Below are positions 1 through 8,258 of a DNA stretch of 64,000 bases, in pieces. The position numbers and the translations under genes were made by a program. Each line of letters starts with the position of its first letter. The first letter of the stretch is position 1. The stretch is from Nitrososphaerota archaeon (GTDB lineage: Archaea; Thermoproteota; Nitrososphaeria; Nitrososphaerales; Nitrosopumilaceae), in the NCBI GenBank assembly GCA_028867755.1, contig JAGWFT010000001.1, forward strand, positions 164,727 to 228,726, read 5' to 3'. Under the pieces are notes generated by a model. The model saw only the letters and a list, made by a program, of their open reading frames with translations, did not search any database and was not told the origin of the DNA.

Positions 1-146
1 GATACTGCGTCAGAGGAGGAGAGTGTTTCTTGGAGAGTCTTGGCTGGGATTCGTGATACTGCGTCAGAGGAGGAGAGTGTTTCTTTGAGAGTCTTGGCTG
101 GGATTCGTGATACTGCGTCAGAGGAGGAGAGTGTTTCTTGGAGAGT
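1..146. repeat. 54-bp tandem repeat (2 full copies + 1 partial; continues beyond the window) encoding TLQETLSSSDAVSRIPAK
   Basis: Unit gatactgcgtcagaggaggagagtgtttcttggagagtcttggctgggattcgt at 1-54 and 55-108 (one substitution), partial at 109-146. Confidence 0.95.
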
Positions 147-3100
147 TACAGTGTTAATCTGGTTTGCTGAATTTATTTCAAGTGCAACTTCAGCCCATTT
201 ATCACCAGTAGTACCAGCAGTCCACTGAAAAGTTGTTGAAGTGGACGCTGGCTGCGTGTTAAGGTGATAGCTTGATGCTCCTGCTGCAGTCGTACCCGCG
301 TTTGTTGAGTAACCAGATGTTTGTGTAGGTGAAGTTGGACTAACTGCAGTAGTTGTTACTTCGACGACTCCATCTACCACCATACTATTTAGATTAGTAT
401 TGGTAAGTGAGGTTGTAATTGTGCCCGATGTACCCGTAGCAGTATTTTTTGAAGCACCTACCGGAGTTGCTTGTAAAACGCCCGTTAAGGCATACGCACC
501 TGCTTGCATGACAACATTACCGCTTGCTGTAATTAGGAGCGTTTTTGCACCAGTGGTTGGAGCTTTCATGTACCACATTGAAACTTGGCCTGTGTTGGCA
601 AGGGCTGGTCCTGCAGTCATTGCTACAGCATTCCATTTTACACTTGATACAGTACCAGACGCAGTAGAGACAATGACTAACAATAGTGTATTTGAACCAC
701 TCGCTGGAACAGTAATTCCCGTACCACCGCTGCAAGAAAGTTGATGGGAGGGCCCACTTGCTGTTCCTTTACATGTGGTTTGTACAGCGCCGTTTAATGC
801 TATTGTTCCAGTAGAAGGATCAACAGCTACAAACCATGGCCTTGCTTCTTTGAAGACTTGACCTGAGCCATAGCTTATCTGAGCTGGGCCCAGTGCATAT
901 AGCTGCGGATACTGCAATGGTACAGAGTATGTGTATTGTACTGACGTTGAATTTCCAATCAAGTTCTTGTTCCATGTTATTGTAGTAGTATCTCCCACAG
1001 TCTGCACGACTCCATCAGTTGTAACGTTAAAGACAGAAGGCACTGTTTCTTGGATAGTAGCAGAGCTTGCATTGGTAAATGAAGTAATATCCAGTTTTAC
1101 GTTAAACGAGTTTGGATTGTCCACTGGGTCAATCTTGGAATCAGCTGTTCTGATTATATCAAATGGGTACGAGTTTTCAGCCAAAAATGAGGTGTTGAAA
1201 ACGGCAGTGCCTGATGGATTTGTAGCACTAATTCCTACAGTATAGTTTCCTTCTGATGTTGTGGCATAGCTTGCATCATAGAGACCACACTGACTCTCTG
1301 GTGTAACTCCATTTCCTGTGGAAAGAGTGGTAGGATTGCCTGATGGGTCTACAATATTCATTGAAATGTTAGAGTTGCATACAGAGTGGCCACCATTGTC
1401 TAGTACCACTATGATAAAGTTGGCAGTCTCCCCTGGCCTGTAGATGCTTTTCTCCGTGTTAAGGGATACAAGGCCCCAGAAGAACTGATTTTGCGTGGTA
1501 AATGTCTGACCATTTCGCGTTAACGTGACTATTACCTTGTAAAGACCTGGATTTGCGCCTTTTAGTGAGGATAGCTTGATGTCAAATTTACCATCTCTGA
1601 GTTTTTGGAATACAGATTTTAATGGAATTTTCTTGCCGTTTGGTCCTATTATATCGATCTTGATCTTTCCTTCCTTGCCTGCCCAAGCATTATTCTGTAC
1701 TGAACCTAATGATTCTTTGATGTCTTTTTTGAACTTCTTCAGGTCTGCCGCTGTAAAGTACTCGAACTTGAATTCAGGGTTTTCAGTTATCAGGTAGCTG
1801 TTCTTGGTATTTACTAGAGACGTAGTTACAGGTATGGCAGTATCGTTGGCAGAGGTGTCATTTAGGGATGTACCGTTTACAAGTGATGTACTGTTCAAAA
1901 TGGATGTGCCATTGAGAACAGATGTAGCATTTGAGAATTGGTTAAAGGAGAGAGAGTTAGTGCTGTTTTTTAGGTTCACATTTTGTACTATGGTTGAATT
2001 TATTGTTGGATTAAGATTAGTTAGTTTGGTAGAATTTGATATAATACTTGCATTGATTTGTGTATTCTGGGAAAGCGGGTTGTTTTGATATATCTGAGCG
2101 ATCTGCAATGGGCTCAAGAGTGAATCATATAGTTTAACATTCTCAATCAAACCTGAGAATAGATTACTTGCCGTATTTCTAGAACCAAGGTAAGCACCAA
2201 TGAGTACGTCGGCATTTGATGATAGGCTATCAACTGTCTTAGTTTCAAGTTGACCATTGAGTGCAATTGTAGGTACACCGCTTAGCTGCTGACTTGCTTC
2301 TTGTTTTCCGTTAACGTAAATTGTAATGGTAGTATCATTGAAGGTGGCAGCAATATGTGTCCAGTCTTGTGGAATAGCACTGTTCGATGTTACCGTATCC
2401 CATTTTATTCCATCAAATATTGAAAAGAAGACCTTCTTTACAGGAGGCATGTTGTTGTTGACTGCAAGTATGAAGGTGTTGCTTTTACTGATTACAGTAA
2501 ATTGTGATGAACCCTGGCTATAGTCTGGCTTTATCCATGCAGATAGAGTGAGGGCCGAGAGATTTGCAGTAGAGGTAACGTTCTGTTTTAGATATCCATT
2601 ACCATTGAGTTGTAATGAGGGTGTGCCTGTACTATTGTCTAGTTGGGTATCACCTACAGAATTAGAATTCAAACTAGATTGAGTAAACTGCCATGAGTTG
2701 GTAGGACTTGTTCCATTTGTAGAGTTTGGGTTGTTTATTGCAATAGAGTTTGAGAACTGATTGGAGAGAGCATTAGTGGCATTAGAGAAATGATTGAAGG
2801 AGAGTGTAGAGTTTGTAATGGATGCAGAGGTGACGTTTGAGAACTGATTGAAGGAAAGAGTGCCAGTGTTGTTTGGTACAGTGTTGTTTATTGCAGTAGA
2901 GTTTGAGAATTGGTTGAATGAAAGAGAGTTGGTGCTGTTGTTTGCTGTAGTAGAGTTTGAGAATTGGTTGAATGAAAGAGAGTTGGCACCGTTTGATACT
3001 CCAGATACAGTTTGATTTGATGATTGCTCTGCATATGCAGCTGCAATAAAACTTGGAGAGAGAGATATAGGAGTAGCAACAGATGATGAAATTAGAACGA

Positions 3101-3893
3101 TGATAAAGAAAAAGGATAAAATTTTTCTGGAATTAGAAATTCTAAGTTTTTCATTTTCAGATTTGACTAGAATATATCCCGAAATGGGTACTAACAACAA
3201 AAAGACAAGAGGATCATTTGGATTAATTGCATCGTGAACAAATTTTGAAATTCCATTGTCCAAGATTATACTTTCCGAAATTATTTTTGTACTGTCAGGA
3301 ATATGTATAGAAATATTCTTGCCAGCATTTCCAATTAATTCCATATATGTAAATTTCTTGAAATTGTTTTCTAGATTTACAATTGCTTGAGTAAAAACTA
3401 ATTCTTGATTTTCTATCAAGCTAACTGATTTGATTATAGATGTTTGATAATTCGATATAGGATTGTTTGTCATTTCTTTGCCATTAATTCTAATTCGATC
3501 AAAATTCCAAATTCTATCAAAGGTTGTTTGAAATTCGGAATTTCGTTTTACAATAGAGATCAAGTTTTGATTTTGACCATCATCAAGTGTAAGTGACATT
3601 TTCTCTGACAAGTTAACTTGAATTTCTGTTGATGGTATTTTTTTAATTGCTGAATTTTGATCAGGTGATGATTTGTCATCTGAAACTCCCATATTTTCAG
3701 CTAGATTAATCTTGAAAGTTTTTTTGTTATATGAGCTGTCTTGGTTATCAATCGTTTGAATTTTTTTTGATAATTCTTGTTGTCCAGATTGCATTGCAGT
3801 TATAGAATCAGCATTAGCAATACTCAAAGAAGTGGTCAATGCAAATATCAGAAAAATGGCGATACTTGATTTCCAGAGTCCTCTATTCATCAT
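1..3893 (-). CDS. Giant secreted/membrane surface protein (>1297 aa, runs off left edge): N-terminal signal, internal hydrophobic segments, LamG/concanavalin-A-like domain, MG2-like domain, C-terminal 18-aa repeats
   Basis: Absent from the ORF track because no stop lies in the window. Manual translation from ATG at 3893 (MMNRGLWKSSIAIFLIFALTTSLSIANA...) stays in frame, checked at 3128 and 29. LamG motifs: LTLSAWIKP, WTHIAATFNDTTITIYVNG, FSGLIENVKLYDSLLS. MG2-like: LNTEKSIYRPGETANFIIVVLD. Confidence 0.85.
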   Translation of the reverse strand, partial: MMNRGLWKSSIAIFLIFALTTSLSIANADSITAMQSGQQELSKKIQTIDNQDSSYNKKTFKINLAENMGVSDDKSSPDQNSAIKKIPSTEIQVNLSEKMSLTLDDGQNQNLISIVKRNSEFQTTFDRIWNFDRIRINGKEMTNNPISNYQTSIIKSVSLIENQELVFTQAIVNLENNFKKFTYMELIGNAGKNISIHIPDSTKIISESIILDNGISKFVHDAINPNDPLVFLLLVPISGYILVKSENEKLRISNSRKILSFFFIIVLISSSVATPISLSPSFIAAAYAEQSSNQTVSGVSNGANSLSFNQFSNSTTANNSTNSLSFNQFSNSTAINNTVPNNTGTLSFNQFSNVTSASITNSTLSFNHFSNATNALSNQFSNSIAINNPNSTNGTSPTNSWQFTQSSLNSNSVGDTQLDNSTGTPSLQLNGNGYLKQNVTSTANLSALTLSAWIKPDYSQGSSQFTVISKSNTFILAVNNNMPPVKKVFFSIFDGIKWDTVTSNSAIPQDWTHIAATFNDTTITIYVNGKQEASQQLSGVPTIALNGQLETKTVDSLSSNADVLIGAYLGSRNTASNLFSGLIENVKLYDSLLSPLQIAQIYQNNPLSQNTQINASIISNSTKLTNLNPTINSTIVQNVNLKNSTNSLSFNQFSNATSVLNGTSILNSTSLVNGTSLNDTSANDTAIPVTTSLVNTKNSYLITENPEFKFEYFTAADLKKFKKDIKESLGSVQNNAWAGKEGKIKIDIIGPNGKKIPLKSVFQKLRDGKFDIKLSSLKGANPGLYKVIVTLTRNGQTFTTQNQFFWGLVSLNTEKSIYRPGETANFIIVVLDNGGHSVCNSNISMNIVDPSGNPTTLSTGNGVTPESQCGLYDASYATTSEGNYTVGISATNPSGTAVFNTSFLAENSYPFDIIRTADSKIDPVDNPNSFNVKLDITSFTNASSATIQETVPSVFNVTTDGVVQTVGDTTTITWNKNLIGNSTSVQYTYSVPLQYPQLYALGPAQISYGSGQVFKEARPWFVAVDPSTGTIALNGAVQTTCKGTASGPSHQLSCSGGTGITVPASGSNTLLLVIVSTASGTVSSVKWNAVAMTAGPALANTGQVSMWYMKAPTTGAKTLLITASGNVVMQAGAYALTGVLQATPVGASKNTATGTSGTITTSLTNTNLNSMVVDGVVEVTTTAVSPTSPTQTSGYSTNAGTTAAGASSYHLNTQPASTSTTFQWTAGTTGDKWAEVALEINSANQINTVTLQETLSSSDAVSRIPAKTLKETLSSSDAVSRIPAKTLQETLSSSDAV

Positions 3894-4863
3894 TATTTAT
3901 TGTCCTAGTCTGATAATCTTAAGACGAATGGAATTTTGTAATATGTGCAGGATCCGAACTGGCAGAACAGCCCAGATGTAATGCCACTCTGGAATATCAT
4001 ATTTTTACCAAAAAATCCCGTATTACTAACAAGTGTTAAGACAAATTCCTAATTTTTAACAATTAATAGATATCTAGATTCTACTACAATTAAGATACAA
4101 GCGTTTCAAATACAGTTAGAAAGATTTTATTTTTTAAAATATTGAAAATGATCAGATATGTATTTTTGAAAAAATAATACAACACCTGAAGAATATTATT
4201 TTGAAATTGTGTCATAAACAGTGTCTTTACTGATTACAAATATGTAATTATTTGTAACAGTACTTTTGTATCGTAAGAAAATATTTTTAATCAAAATCAT
4301 AAATCTAATAATATTTATCTTCAGACTTAAAATTTCTCAGAAAGTTGCTTTTGTTTGTCTTGCAATACTTTTCATAATGAATATTTTCTAGTATTGACCA
4401 AATTCTCCAACTCCTAAATTATCTAGTACTTATCTCAAAAAGACAGTATCTTTCTCTAATATTGTACGCGTTATTATTTTTCTCTAAACTGTTAGCATTT
4501 CATCTCTATTCCGATCATCCTACTATTTCATTTATAGATCAGCAATTCCTAAAAAGAAAAAGATTTGTTCTATCTTTTATGTTGTTATAGTAATTTTGTT
4601 TTTGATATATATTACAACTGTGTTTACAAAGACGTTGACAGTAGCATACAGAGCAACGAAGAAAATTTTTTTCCAGAATTTTCTATACTGTGTCATGTGG
4701 TATATTTTTTCTTGCTGCATTAAATAATCCTATTACATACGAAAGCAAAAACAAAAATACCAAACTGTCAAATCTTAAATAATCACGATTCATTCATGTT
4801 TCTGATTCTTGGAATAGTTTTACTCGAGACAATCATAAAACATTACAGTGTTGATTTTGGAAA

Positions 4864-5667
4864 TTAGTACTTGCAGTAAATCTCACTTTTCTTTAGTCTT
4901 ATAATGACTATTAGAGAAGAGATAGTTACAGATAGAATCAACAAAGGCCATGGAAATTCTGGAAGAGATTGGTCAGGAGATATTAGATCTCCCCATAATT
5001 TTGGAGGCGGAATCTCGAATGTGTTTTTAGACGATATATCTTTTGGATATGTGTAAATTTTACCAGTGTGTGACTCGAAAACAGCCATGTAGAACCCATA
5101 GTGGTCTAACCTTCCAAGCTTATCGAGCGGTATTCTAAATTCATAGCTTGAATGTGGATCTAAACTATATCGATCGTGTTTATCTGAAACATTACCTATA
5201 GCAACAAGCCCATCAAAATTGGTAATTTTTTTGAAATTACCATTAAACCCTAATGTAGATCCTCCCTGCAACGTATACGATTCGGTACCGTTTAAAACAT
5301 TAACAAAACAATAATCGTTAGAAGTAGATTCTTGTGGTTTTGCATCATTTTTATCAAAACAAATCATGGCATAATCTGATCTCTTTTGGTAATTGGTGTC
5401 GGTAAGATCATCTATCATAATATAAATAAAATTGTCTTGATGAGCACTTCTCAATTCAATTTCAGTTCCATCATCATAAAAAAAATTATTGAGACTTGAT
5501 GCCTTCCATTCTTCTGTAAACGACCATTTTCCATCAAATACAACATTATTCATGTGTGTTGAGAGTGTTATCATTATGGGTTCGTCCGCATAAGCACTTG
5601 AGGTACCCAACATAAAGATCAAGATCATTAAGACATAATACTTGACTTGCAAAATTGTAGACGCCAT
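4864..5667 (-). CDS. Secreted protein with DOMON/carbohydrate-binding-like domain and C-terminal PEF-CTERM-type sorting signal
   Basis: Signal peptide ending ..SSAYA; VVFDGKWSFTEEW motif; C-terminus LPEFPWPLLILSVTISSLIVIIRLKK (PEF + TM + basic residues). Confidence 0.7.
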   Translation of the reverse strand: MASTILQVKYYVLMILIFMLGTSSAYADEPIMITLSTHMNNVVFDGKWSFTEEWKASSLNNFFYDDGTEIELRSAHQDNFIYIMIDDLTDTNYQKRSDYAMICFDKNDAKPQESTSNDYCFVNVLNGTESYTLQGGSTLGFNGNFKKITNFDGLVAIGNVSDKHDRYSLDPHSSYEFRIPLDKLGRLDHYGFYMAVFESHTGKIYTYPKDISSKNTFEIPPPKLWGDLISPDQSLPEFPWPLLILSVTISSLIVIIRLKKSEIYCKY

Positions 5668-5697
5668 AATAAATTATTAATGAATAGATTTTAAACT

Positions 5698-5994
5698 TTG
5701 GTTATTTCGTTGGACAAGTTTATAGACCATGTTATCTTTTTGGTGATTATGAAAAAACCTGTTGTTATAGGAATAATTGCCATAATAATTTCAATTGGAG
5801 TGATAGTAGCATTATCTTATGTTGTTCCTGCAGGTAGTAATAATCCTGCTAATGTTCCAACAAACTCACAAAATACCACTGTTACAGTTACACCTCAGAC
5901 TGTCAATAATGCGACAACTGTTACTGCTCAAAATACAACTGGTAAACATTTCAACATAACTCTGCAAGAACAAGTTGGTATAAAGACAAAATAA
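5698..5994 (+). CDS. Small membrane-anchored Asn/Thr-rich protein (probable start MKKPVVIG at 5749)
   Basis: N-terminal TM helix, low-complexity N/T/Q stalk, terminal motif HFNITLQEQVGIKTK. Confidence 0.7.
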   Translation: MVISLDKFIDHVIFLVIMKKPVVIGIIAIIISIGVIVALSYVVPAGSNNPANVPTNSQNTTVTVTPQTVNNATTVTAQNTTGKHFNITLQEQVGIKTK

Positions 5995-6071
5995 TCAAGT
6001 TCCAAATTGGAACGTATCATATGCAGTAATTTCCACAATGTCTAATAATGAGAGATTGATCCTAAGAGACA

Positions 6072-6692
6072 ATGAATCATCTAAAAACTATGGGACTGTT
6101 TGGCATTGTAGCTATAGCAGTTGGCATGGTTGGGATAAACGGAGTTAATGCAAGCACATTAGGAATTGCAGATACTCCTAAATCCGATTCAGGTGAAAAG
6201 ACATCCTTGCTTGGCCACATAATTGTGACCGTAACAGATTCGCAAGGACACATCAAGGCATATCGACAAACTGACAACATAGTGACAAACATAGGACATG
6301 ACTGTGCTGCTAACCTGCTCTTTGGAACAGGATTTGCAAACTGTTCTTCTCCAGCAGTATTCAAGTATATTGCAGTCACAGCAGCAACCAGTGTCGGAAC
6401 AGGTACAGCTACTGATACTACACTTTCTGGCGAACTTACCACAAACGGATTGGCAAGAACCTCAGGAACTGTCACAGCAAACCAAGTTGCAACAGGTACA
6501 ACAACAAGTGCTATTGCACAAGTAGCAAATACTTTCACATATTCAGGCACTACTGCGCAATCTGTAGCAGCTGCAGGATTGTTTGATGCAGCAAGTACTG
6601 GAAATATGTTTGCTGAAAGGGCCTTTGGAAGTGCAGTCACACTGAATCAAAACGACCAACTGACGGTACAATGGCAGATAACACTTAGTTAA
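6072..6692 (+). CDS. Secreted beta-rich protein resembling small phage virion/tail-associated structural proteins
   Basis: Signal peptide, then GHIIVTVTD..NIVTNIG..FKYIAV..ATDTTLSGEL..AAGLFDAASTGNMF..LTVQWQITLS. I recognise this motif order from tailed-phage structural proteins; this is pattern recognition, not a search. Confidence 0.7.
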   Translation: MNHLKTMGLFGIVAIAVGMVGINGVNASTLGIADTPKSDSGEKTSLLGHIIVTVTDSQGHIKAYRQTDNIVTNIGHDCAANLLFGTGFANCSSPAVFKYIAVTAATSVGTGTATDTTLSGELTTNGLARTSGTVTANQVATGTTTSAIAQVANTFTYSGTTAQSVAAAGLFDAASTGNMFAERAFGSAVTLNQNDQLTVQWQITLS

Positions 6693-7616: not shown

Positions 7617-8258
7617 CTACTCGTATGTTGATTGTGACGATACGCCGGAGGGTGATGGAACTGATGGGAACCTGTCGCCAATTTGTTGTTCTGCAACTGC
7701 CGATGCCTCTTGGAGTATCTTCTCTGTTTCTTCGCTTGATACATCGGATTCTACATTGAAGTCTCCACCTGCTAGTGAGTCCATCATTAGTCCATTGAGT
7801 GTCTGGGTCATTGCATTTAGTTCGGAATCTGCTTCTGGCATGAATCTTCCAAGGGATGATTTTAGTCCCTTCATTGTTGACATTGCAGGAGCAATTGCTA
7901 CCATTGCATCGCCTAGGTCGTGTATTGTTGTTAGACGCAATTGTACTTGCTCTAGTGCCATTCTAGCATTTCCTAGCATCTTTGTGACCTTTCTTATCTC
8001 TGCCAATTCATTGGACAGAACTCTACTTGTGCTCGCATCGTGTTGCTGCATTGCGACTACGATTCGCTTGAAAAGCTGTTCATCTCTTTGTCTTAGCTTT
8101 GTCAGCATAGCATCCATCTTCGATATTTGACCCTGTAACTTGTTCACAGCGCCCTCAATTCTTGGTTTGAGTGCTCCCTGTGGTTTTACAGTTTCACGTA
8201 ATTTTTCGGTTAAACCTACAGACTCGGGACGAGTCCAGGTCTTATCGAAGCCGGTCAT
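7617..8258 (-). CDS. cdvB: ESCRT-III/Snf7 family CdvB paralog
   Basis: Helical Snf7 core (KPRIEGAVNKLQGQISK..LSNELAEIRKVTKMLGNARMALEQVQLRL); strongly similar to 40742-41380. Confidence 0.88.
   Translation of the reverse strand: MTGFDKTWTRPESVGLTEKLRETVKPQGALKPRIEGAVNKLQGQISKMDAMLTKLRQRDEQLFKRIVVAMQQHDASTSRVLSNELAEIRKVTKMLGNARMALEQVQLRLTTIHDLGDAMVAIAPAMSTMKGLKSSLGRFMPEADSELNAMTQTLNGLMMDSLAGGDFNVESDVSSEETEKILQEASAVAEQQIGDRFPSVPSPSGVSSQSTYE

Follow-up and report, generated by a model that had tools for sequence, protein, structure and literature searches.

The locus described here is chromosomal and probably encodes an exported rope-and-bead surface fibre of Nitrosopumilaceae that uses a short conserved motif as its docking strand. 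The motif has the consensus L-x-E-x-h-[G/S]-h and is often found as K-H-h-x-h-x-L-x-E-x-V-G-I. A small membrane protein encoded directly 5′ of the gene for a 206-aa protein (the candidate bead) ends with it in 18 of the 34 Nitrosopumilaceae species loci. The giant surface protein of the locus carries two copies ∼31 residues apart at its N-terminus in all orthologues examined, and in the giants of other genera the motif is the core of 16–22-residue tandem repeats. Furthermore, the same C-terminal tag closes a second membrane-protein family that is unlinked to the bead gene. An initial annotation of this DNA had read the genes as a surface fibre made from phage-like parts; this overall interpretation is supported, and of the checks it proposed, most of the feasible ones favoured it. 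The features are listed in Table 1, in which the window is the whole stretch of 64 000 nucleotides that was analysed.

Table 1. Features of the candidate fibre locus, with positions in the window
Feature	Position	Strand	Basis
Giant surface protein, first 1297 of 2336 aa; candidate membrane-anchored 'rope'	3..3893	-	ORF and translation; extends left of the window to G000:C24:161609
Predicted signal peptide of the giant, aa 1–28	3810..3893	-	Sequence inspection: basic start, hydrophobic core, A-N-A ahead of the mature end
Motif copy 1, giant aa 60–71	3681..3716	-	Position kept in all giant orthologues examined; tail HMM places the match at aa 58–70
Motif copy 2, giant aa 91–102, 31 residues past copy 1	3588..3623	-	Tail HMM places the match at aa 92–100
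Two hydrophobic helices with a short basic loop, giant aa ∼228–283	3045..3212	-	Sequence inspection; segment conserved in orthologues
Domain immediately ahead of the repeat array, giant aa ∼1030–1248	150..806	-	Weak sub-threshold Pfam Polysacc_lyase (ConA-like) match
First 2.7 units of an 18-aa (54-bp) tandem repeat, from giant aa ∼1249; candidate docking sites	3..149	-	TRF period 54
267-aa surface protein: signal peptide, CBM9-like domain, C-terminal L-P-E-F-P, helix and basic tail	4864..5667	-	Conserved neighbour by synteny; no assigned role
Small type-II membrane protein, ORF of 98 aa; likely start ATG 5749, giving 81 aa	5698..5994	+	Sequence; small homologous ORFs in related loci
C-terminal tag of the small protein, aa 85–96 of 98, stop two residues on	5950..5985	+	Best match of the relatives-only HMM, E 3.5e-4
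206-aa predicted exported Gp80-family 'bead'	6072..6692	+	Pfam PF23140, phrog_5417, profile and structure matches

The candidate bead protein and the conservation of its locus

The 206-aa protein is composed of a hydrophobic N-terminus (aa 1–27), a variable linker and a beta-sandwich core (aa ∼46–206) with Cys78 and Cys91. Pfam assigns it to PF23140 with 28.0 bits (E 3.1e-6, aa 108–200), only 1 bit above the cut-off of 27.0; most of its homologues carry PF23140 as well, and the search of PHROGs returned phrog_5417 (E 3e-12). A phmmer search of the PDB with the single sequence gave no match, and 8jou was reached with a profile only: the profile of 36 homologues matched 8jou_a (GP4 gp80) with E 1.1e-3 across a common F-D-A-x-x-G-G-N block. 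The core is well modelled by AF2 (pLDDT 73.8 for the protein), and Foldseek matched the model to 8jou_a with a probability of 0.99. By comparison in VIA (Z 8.7, rmsd 3.6 Å, 119 of 136 residues) the model adopts the beta-sandwich fold of GP4 gp80, with a Z that is moderate and at which an unrelated common fold is still possible. VIA also matched chains of the Bas63 and Sf14 neck reconstructions (Z 7.0), and unrelated rows reached at most 5.1. The proposal that the protein belongs to a phage structural family was thus borne out by Pfam (Gp80) and by the PDB (8jou, fibre I). In the alignment only archaeal rows have the Cys78/Cys91 pair; this pair and the hydrophobic N-terminus, which may be a cleaved signal or a retained anchor, suggest that the protein is exported. 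Two bead genes stand in tandem in one genome (G013), and in another (G020) the bead gene is present beside masked Ns.

Within the genus the gene order giant, CBM9-like gene, small gene and bead is kept, and the locus is conserved in Ca. Nitrosotalea and in other Nitrosopumilaceae. The 34-locus set was found with an archaeal-subset alignment of the bead family. Conclusions were drawn without the genomes G017, G010 and G011, and G017 shows the same arrangement. Both linkage and motif conservation across the Nitrosopumilaceae, which had been put forward as a way to examine the idea, were strong; synteny inside one archaeal family is partly inherited and is not independent evidence. The 267-aa protein between the giant and the small gene gave no Pfam match at E < 0.1. 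Its Atlas structure matches are CBM9 clusters (TM about 0.6), and its Atlas feature matches of 0.90 to PEF-CTERM and PEP-CTERM clusters are a lead only. The L-P-E-F-P with helix and basic tail is conserved in its orthologues and may mark a PEF-CTERM archaeosortase substrate.

The motif in the giant and the small membrane protein

Pfam identifies Laminin_G_3 (aa 431–599) and MG2 (aa 812–901) domains in the giant protein. Its anchor would be of the signal peptide plus hydrophobic hairpin type, the helix pair being probably a membrane hairpin judging from its sequence; the giant of G034 carries a C-terminal helix as anchor. An Ig-like collar/adaptor or nozzle domain, by which phage ropes are anchored, was not found by Pfam in the giant. 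Orthologues of the domain ahead of the repeats are found in G018 and G012 only. A homology of this domain to P0093, encoded after a phage Gp80 homologue, is unproven (BLASTP E 0.002, 33% identity; hhalign probability 2%, E 0.025).

The repeat array comprises at least 18 units and runs left of the window through a 100-N assembly gap; self-comparison yielded a period of 18 and a self-identity of 0.72. In five archaeal giants the periods are 18 (this genome), 21, 20, 20 and 20, across orthologues and other genera they range from 16 to 22, and the giant of another genus holds about 115–135 units. Tandem short units (about 18–23 residues) near the bead gene, a mark of phage ropes, which have one unit for each bead monomer, are found in archaea, too. 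That genes of this kind lie beside repeat proteins had been stated in the initial annotation, and this holds in phage MW202796, in which a protein with 18-residue repeats directly follows the Gp80-like gene, as well as in two other archaeal genera (G030, G034), where a repeat protein is encoded directly 3′ of the bead gene as in phages. On three contigs (L030, L031, L047) self-identity did not reveal a clear period in the large neighbours of Gp80-like genes. Neither the repeat array nor the phage neighbour P0093 had a meaningful match when searched by sequence against the PDB.

All motif strings quoted in the initial annotation were found where it had placed them, i.e. in the N-terminal region and the repeat region of the giant and at the C-terminus of the small protein. 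The 206-aa protein does not bear out the 'weaker echo' proposed for its N-terminus, where the L-x-E core is missing and no HMM score was obtained. The loose pattern h-x-L-x-E-x-h-x-h occurs 75 times in 591,374 six-frame ORF residues of the genome, from which 0.33 matches are expected in the giant, small and 206-aa proteins taken together and 3 are observed, a weak enrichment for a pattern that was chosen post hoc. By itself the loose regular expression is weak evidence, and the decisive support for the candidate motif comes from comparative data. The small protein is laid out as an N-terminal helix, an Asn/Thr-rich stalk and the C-terminal candidate docking tag, and small homologous ORFs are found directly 5′ of the bead gene (within 450 bp) in the same 18 of 34 public species loci and in 9 genomes of the genus. 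Across these the C-terminal tail is conserved and the preceding stalk is variable.

An HMM of 14 columns, trained solely on the small-protein tails of relatives, had its best match among the 10,166 ORFs of the genome in the 98-aa protein (E 3.5e-4), with the giant in third place. Applied to the 34 loci, it gave 19 ORFs at least 10 bits, a level not reached by reversed (at most 7.6 bits) or shuffled (at most 6.4 bits) copies. The training tails and some of the 34 loci come from the same genomes; apparently outside the training genomes are L048, L049, L051, L054, L066, L069, L071, L072, L074 and L078, as well as the rope ORFs of L075 and L076. The HMM matches the giants' N-termini and tandem rope units with 18- and 20-residue spacing (L076, E 3.9e-8; L075, E 0.024). 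In G012 the tail of the small protein and the first motif copy of the giant are identical across 14 residues. The 18-aa repeats of the genome studied here obtained no score with the motif HMMs and have only the core L-x-E-x-L...D in common with the motif; the link between repeats and motif was drawn from the other genera. A complex prediction for two mature copies of the 206-aa protein with giant aa 50–112, containing both N-terminal motifs, gave a score of 0.02 with controls absent and speaks neither for nor against binding.

Proposed assembly and alternative readings

With regard to dimerisation, strand docking, stoichiometry and function of the archaeal fibre we infer the following. By analogy with GP4, Bas63 and A1002 the 206-aa bead would dimerise with one sheet left incomplete, and the strand L-x-E-x-h-[G/S]-h(-x-D) would complete this open sheet, which makes the motif a likely docking site for the bead protein. 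It would be used in several formats: the tandem 16–22-residue repeats of membrane-anchored giants would form the rope, the two copies at the giant's N-terminus would be enough for one dimer, and the single copy at the end of the small protein would provide a membrane tether or an assembly chaperone. The cell would carry on its surface a beaded filament or coat with LamG, MG2 and other adhesin-type domains. [quoted passage not shown] The phage ropes examined do not contain the Glu of the archaeal motif, so that the docking chemistry is not simply transferable.

The motif could instead be a true docking or strand-exchange tag with a different receptor, for example the CBM9-like PEF-CTERM protein, the S-layer or the giant's own domains, with the Gp80-like protein as an independent secreted lectin-like protein. 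We consider this unlikely. The CBM9-like gene is linked as tightly as the bead gene, and the second family that ends in the tag, being unlinked to the bead gene, makes another receptor possible; Nitrosotenuis yielded no small tag gene and yet keeps the bead and CBM9-like genes side by side. However, among the components only the Gp80-like protein has a fold for which strand acceptance is documented, the small tag gene lies immediately 5′ of the bead gene on the same strand and divergent from the CBM9-like gene, and the bead of G030 and G034 pairs with a repeat protein in genomes that yielded no match to the CBM9-like protein. A reading without any common partner, in which repeats and motifs are self-folding elements of the giant (beta-solenoid, stalk) or sites of glycosylation or processing and the likeness of the tails reflects composition or local gene conversion, appears improbable to us. 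It would account for the N-x-S/T sequons in the Ser/Thr/Asn-rich motif and repeat regions, for the modest genomic enrichment of the loose pattern and for the identical 14-mers in G012, which gene conversion could have produced, but it fits poorly with a tail that 18 species loci keep at the very C-terminus, next to a stalk that is not conserved, with a tag common to two unrelated membrane families and with the empty reversed and shuffled controls. The isolated repeat array gave no confident fold in AF2 (pLDDT 43.5, pTM 0.17), which is weak evidence because the model was run on a single sequence and such runs are often poor without an alignment.

It is very improbable that the locus is a decayed provirus or a passively carried viral cassette without a cellular role, even though it is in tailed viruses that the bead family, and bead genes paired with rope genes, have otherwise been recorded. 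The flanking genes are housekeeping ones (primase, aaRS, AP endonuclease, UDG, a racemase-like gene and precorrin methylases of the cobalamin pathway) in place of a virion head–neck–tail module around the bead gene; capsid, terminase and integrase families were not seen among them, nor was a surrounding prophage, and phrog_5417 is the only PHROGs match among the four proteins of the locus. The position next to the UDG and precorrin-methylase genes is constant across genera. Both the archaea-specific export features of the bead and the fusion of the rope to membrane anchors and adhesin domains argue against a viral remnant as well.

To our knowledge, rope-and-bead fibres have so far been described only from a few phage cryo-EM structures, and our literature search found no paper naming PF23140 or a cellular counterpart of such fibres. 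If the locus does encode a rope-and-bead fibre, a whole assembly principle has been exchanged between viruses and cells, and some giant surface proteins of abundant ammonia-oxidising archaea that are now 'hypothetical' gain a function; a possible purpose is thereby suggested for the repeats of many giant archaeal proteins. A short peptide tag with a small receptor would be directly testable and perhaps usable as a protein-coupling tool. More tentatively, and with considerable doubt on our side, the L-x-E strand might serve Nitrosopumilaceae as a modular docking tag throughout the genome: two-groove Gp80-like dimers would couple tag-bearing membrane proteins (two unrelated families so far) non-covalently to giant ropes, and the small upstream protein would be a membrane-bound chaperone that passes on beads by strand exchange. 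Archaeal envelopes would then be assembled by a new principle, one either taken over from viruses or passed on to them.

Comparison with known fibres

In chaperone-usher pili the missing strand of an Ig-like sandwich is supplied by another chain. The analogy concerns the way of working only: until it is assembled, a subunit could be held by a partner at the membrane, as we propose for the small protein, whereas there is no relation in sequence or fold, no usher in the archaeal case and a different, archaeal envelope.

The chain-like fibre of A1002, a Pseudomonas podophage (nozzle-rope gp39, gp40/gp41 dimers; PMC13730344), resembles the archaeal locus in its numerous docking sites along a single long protein (11 in A1002, candidate sites in the archaeon) and in its two bead paralogues, comparable to the tandem bead genes of G013, and its augmented beta-sheet docking is the one proposed for the archaeon. 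In contrast, its rope is part of the tail nozzle and has neither membrane anchor nor export. The collar-whiskers of the myophages Bas63 and Sf14 (PMC12609058) are attached to the phage neck, are assembled in the cytoplasm and have only two dimers per rope. They resemble the archaeal system in that the rope is an extension of another protein in both; their beads are dimers whose sandwiches are completed by the rope, as in the mechanism proposed here, and the structural matches at the Z given above extend to chains of both reconstructions, among which the whisker may be.

In fibre I of the Ralstonia podophage GP4 a 'rope' with its own gene carries the gp80 dimers, with docking on the adaptor gp77 (8JOU, PF23140). 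This fibre belongs to a virion module, unlike the genes on the cellular chromosome described here, and no gp77-like Ig adaptor was found at the archaeal locus. GP4 has five dimers, in contrast to an archaeal rope of 2336 aa that is membrane-anchored and multidomain, with its 18 or more units; the export signal and Cys pair of the archaeal bead and the conserved Glu of the archaeal docking unit set the two further apart. What GP4 fibre I and the archaeal locus have in common is the same bead family and fold, a separate partner gene with short tandem units and the linkage between bead and partner.

A Gp80-type protein at a conserved chromosomal locus

The names carried by close homologues place the source genome (1.64 Mb) in Candidatus Nitrosotalea. 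Its 206-aa protein falls by a slim margin (28.0 vs 27.0 bits cut-off) into the Pfam family Gp80, "Podophage GP4 fiber I protein", and matches phrog_5417 in PHROGs (E 3e-12). A 36-member profile matches PDB 8jou chain a (E 1.1e-3), which has 140 aa and is present in ten copies in the entry, in agreement with gp80 as five dimers (PMC13730344). The AF2 model has a pLDDT of 73.8 overall, with a core that is mostly confident from about residue 46. A domain of a Haloferax tailed virus 1 tail protein is its best structural match (Z 8.8), followed by 8jou chain a with a moderate Z of 8.7 over 119/136 residues and by chains of the Bas63 and Sf14 neck reconstructions (Z 7.0); unrelated rows reach at most 5.1.

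The 88 database relatives split into two groups: an archaeal group with a hydrophobic N-terminus, and a second group without it, whose sampled members come from phage contigs of 42-45 kb, close to capsid genes. G21, N69, R129 and D172 are near-invariant family-wide, and H49, Y64, Q66, D68 and a C78/C91 pair occur in the archaeal rows only; the cysteine pair fits an extracytoplasmic disulfide. The hydrophobic N-terminus lines up with a Gly-rich segment at the N-terminus of the phage members, and G21 is near-invariant; the segment may therefore stay on as a signal anchor instead of being cleaved. What looks like a signal peptide may have its origin in the N-terminal dimerisation helix of the family. 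One related genome, G013, carries two tandem paralogues, which recall phage A1002 with its two types of bead, gp40 and gp41.

The block is flanked on one side by DNA primase subunits, an AP endonuclease and a class-II aaRS, and on the other by UDG, a racemase-like gene and two precorrin methylases. The same flanking genes recur in Nitrosotenuis and Nitrosopumilus loci, and these housekeeping-type flanks with their recurrence make a prophage at this locus very unlikely. Among the nine genomes of the genus that are at least 95% complete, all hold a homologue of the 206-aa protein (the copies in G007 and G010 are divergent or partial, and Ns masked that of G020); the giant's N-terminal module was found in eight of the nine, and the 267-aa protein likewise in eight. 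The 267-aa gene stays beside the 206-aa gene across genera; its product has a predicted CBM9-like fold and a C-terminus (L-P-E-F-P, helix, basic tail) resembling a PEF-CTERM archaeosortase signal. A homologue with 48% identity and an apparently broken frame was also found in a Nitrospirota-labelled bin (contig CAWJRJ010000021.1); its neighbours, a precorrin methylase, a racemase-like gene and the 213-aa protein, are in Nitrosopumilaceae-type synteny, and the contig is probably a chimera or was assigned to the wrong bin.

Features of the locus and related sites (plain coordinates are window positions, the window being G000:C24:164727-228726; G000 is the source genome, L0xx are loci)
Feature	Coordinates	Strand	Description
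Giant ORF	3-3893	minus	extends beyond the window edge, full read 2336 aa; from the N-terminus: signal peptide, ~200-aa ectodomain with both motif copies, hydrophobic hairpin, Asn-rich sequon repeats, Laminin_G_3, MG2, one further domain, at least 18 tandem 18-aa units, ~700 more residues
Asn-rich repeats of giant	~2883-2987 and neighbouring stretches	minus	S-L-S-F-N-Q-F-S-N-type, many N-x-S/T sequons, flanking the LamG domain
100-N assembly gap	G000:C24:164627-164726 (L008 14628-14727)		within the giant's 54-bp repeat array, just left of window position 1
267-aa protein	4864-5667	minus	upstream of the giant, same strand
Small membrane protein	probable start ATG at 5749		98-aa ORF, 81 aa from the probable start; divergent from the 267-aa gene
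Hydrophobic N-terminus of 206-aa protein	6072-6152	plus	
213-aa protein	7617-8258	minus	93-98% identity across the genus; no Pfam match at E < 0.001
334-aa ORF	G000:C24:953012-954013 (L035/L082)		outside the window; second type-II membrane protein family
Tandem paralogues in G013	L024 9515-10978		

A shared motif in the small and giant proteins

The initial annotation had linked these proteins through a short motif (hxLxExhxh, refined here to L-x-E-x-h-[G/S]-h, h being hydrophobic). Each string it quoted was found where it had been placed; the confirmation does not extend to a supposed weaker echo in the 206-aa protein. Within this genome a loose pattern, defined post hoc, occurs in these proteins at only about nine times the expected frequency (3 observed vs 0.33 expected), and the evidence from sequence comparison is much stronger. 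A profile HMM of the small proteins' tails, built from eight relatives only, ranks the 98-aa protein first among 10,166 six-frame ORFs of this genome (E 3.5e-4). The giant ranks third with an E of 1.2, which alone is not significant, and the hits mark exactly both motif sites. Across 34 public species-representative loci holding 206-aa homologues, 19 ORFs scored at least 10 bits vs 0 in reversed or shuffled sets; several of these loci are training genomes, and at least 10 small-protein matches plus the rope matches appear independent.

The 206-aa gene starts 77 nt after the small ORF. Such ORFs encode a helix at the N-terminus, a stalk that is not conserved and the tail G-[K/R]-H-h-x-h-x-L-x-E-x-V-G-I-x-x-K-stop. 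In 9 genomes of the genus they separate the homologue of the 267-aa protein from that of the 206-aa protein, and in 18/34 public loci (among them Nitrosotalea, other Nitrosopumilaceae, one Nitrosopumilus and one Nitrososphaeraceae bin) they are found no more than 450 bp upstream of the latter. All giant orthologues examined keep two motif copies about 30-35 residues apart, preceding a conserved R-I-R-F-N-G-R domain. In the related genome G012 the small-protein tail is identical to the giant's first motif copy over 14 residues, and in G001 and G020 these two share an E-S-V-G-I-T-T or K-H-L...V-G-I core.

Tandem repeats of the giant proteins

The count of at least 18 units in the giant is a lower bound, as the assembly gap sits inside the array. 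The repeat consensus in this genome is K-E-T-L-S-S-S-D-x-I-x-K-x-x-x-T-x-L, in which only L-x-E-x-L...D is common with the tail motif, or tag. The 20-residue unit at locus L075 shows K-S-L-S-E-S-V-G-I-T-D, and the unit at L076 and L052 (Nitrosotenuis) shows S-L-[S/T]-E-N-L-G-I-T-D. The tail HMM matches the array of L075 every 20 residues (E 0.024) and that of L076 every 18 (E 3.9e-8). Periods in four giants of the genus are 18, 21, 20 and 20. Tag and repeat unit represent a single element, whose shared core consists of L(-2), E(0), h(+2), G/S(+3) and h(+4), with D(+6) added in repeat units. The related genome G034 encodes, directly downstream of its 206-aa homologue, a protein of ~3,480 aa with period 20 across >2,300 residues, a signal peptide and a C-terminal anchor; G030 holds a degenerate form of this arrangement. 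Modelled without an alignment, the giant's array alone gave no confident predicted fold.

A putative archaeal rope-and-bead fibre

The simplest reading that joins these facts would be an exported Gp80-type bead that needs a donated strand. Donors would be giant anchored ropes (tandem), rope N-termini (duplicate) and the small membrane protein, whose gene shares the orientation of the bead gene (single). With two grooves, a bead dimer could occupy two adjacent units or bridge tags on two proteins. The small protein might serve as a membrane tether for beads or keep them bound until transfer to the rope, a speculation by analogy with donor-strand exchange in pili.

A second tag-bearing family, the 334-aa ORF, is not linked to the bead gene. 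It carries an Asn/Thr-rich stalk and the C-terminus K-x-h-x-L-[N/S]-E-x-h-x-h-N-x-[S/T]-x-K-stop; orthologues from 8 genomes of the genus keep this tail, and their stalk is variable. This family fits a modular tag, yet leaves room for another receptor. Docking of the motif on the bead is a candidate interaction. Homology, the literature and comparative genomics all support the motif-linked surface fibre proposed in the initial annotation, in which docking itself is predicted.

In phages, the rope threads through grooves and completes "incomplete whisker sandwiches"; GP4 has a separate rope protein with five dimers on it (PMC12609058). In A1002 eleven dimers each make an augmented beta-sheet with the nozzle-rope protein (PMC13730344). 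In phage MW202796 the gene that follows the one for a Gp80-like "tail collar fiber protein" has a 429-aa product containing 18-residue repeats. The locus would encode a cellular, archaeal variant of a fibre architecture otherwise known only from phages.
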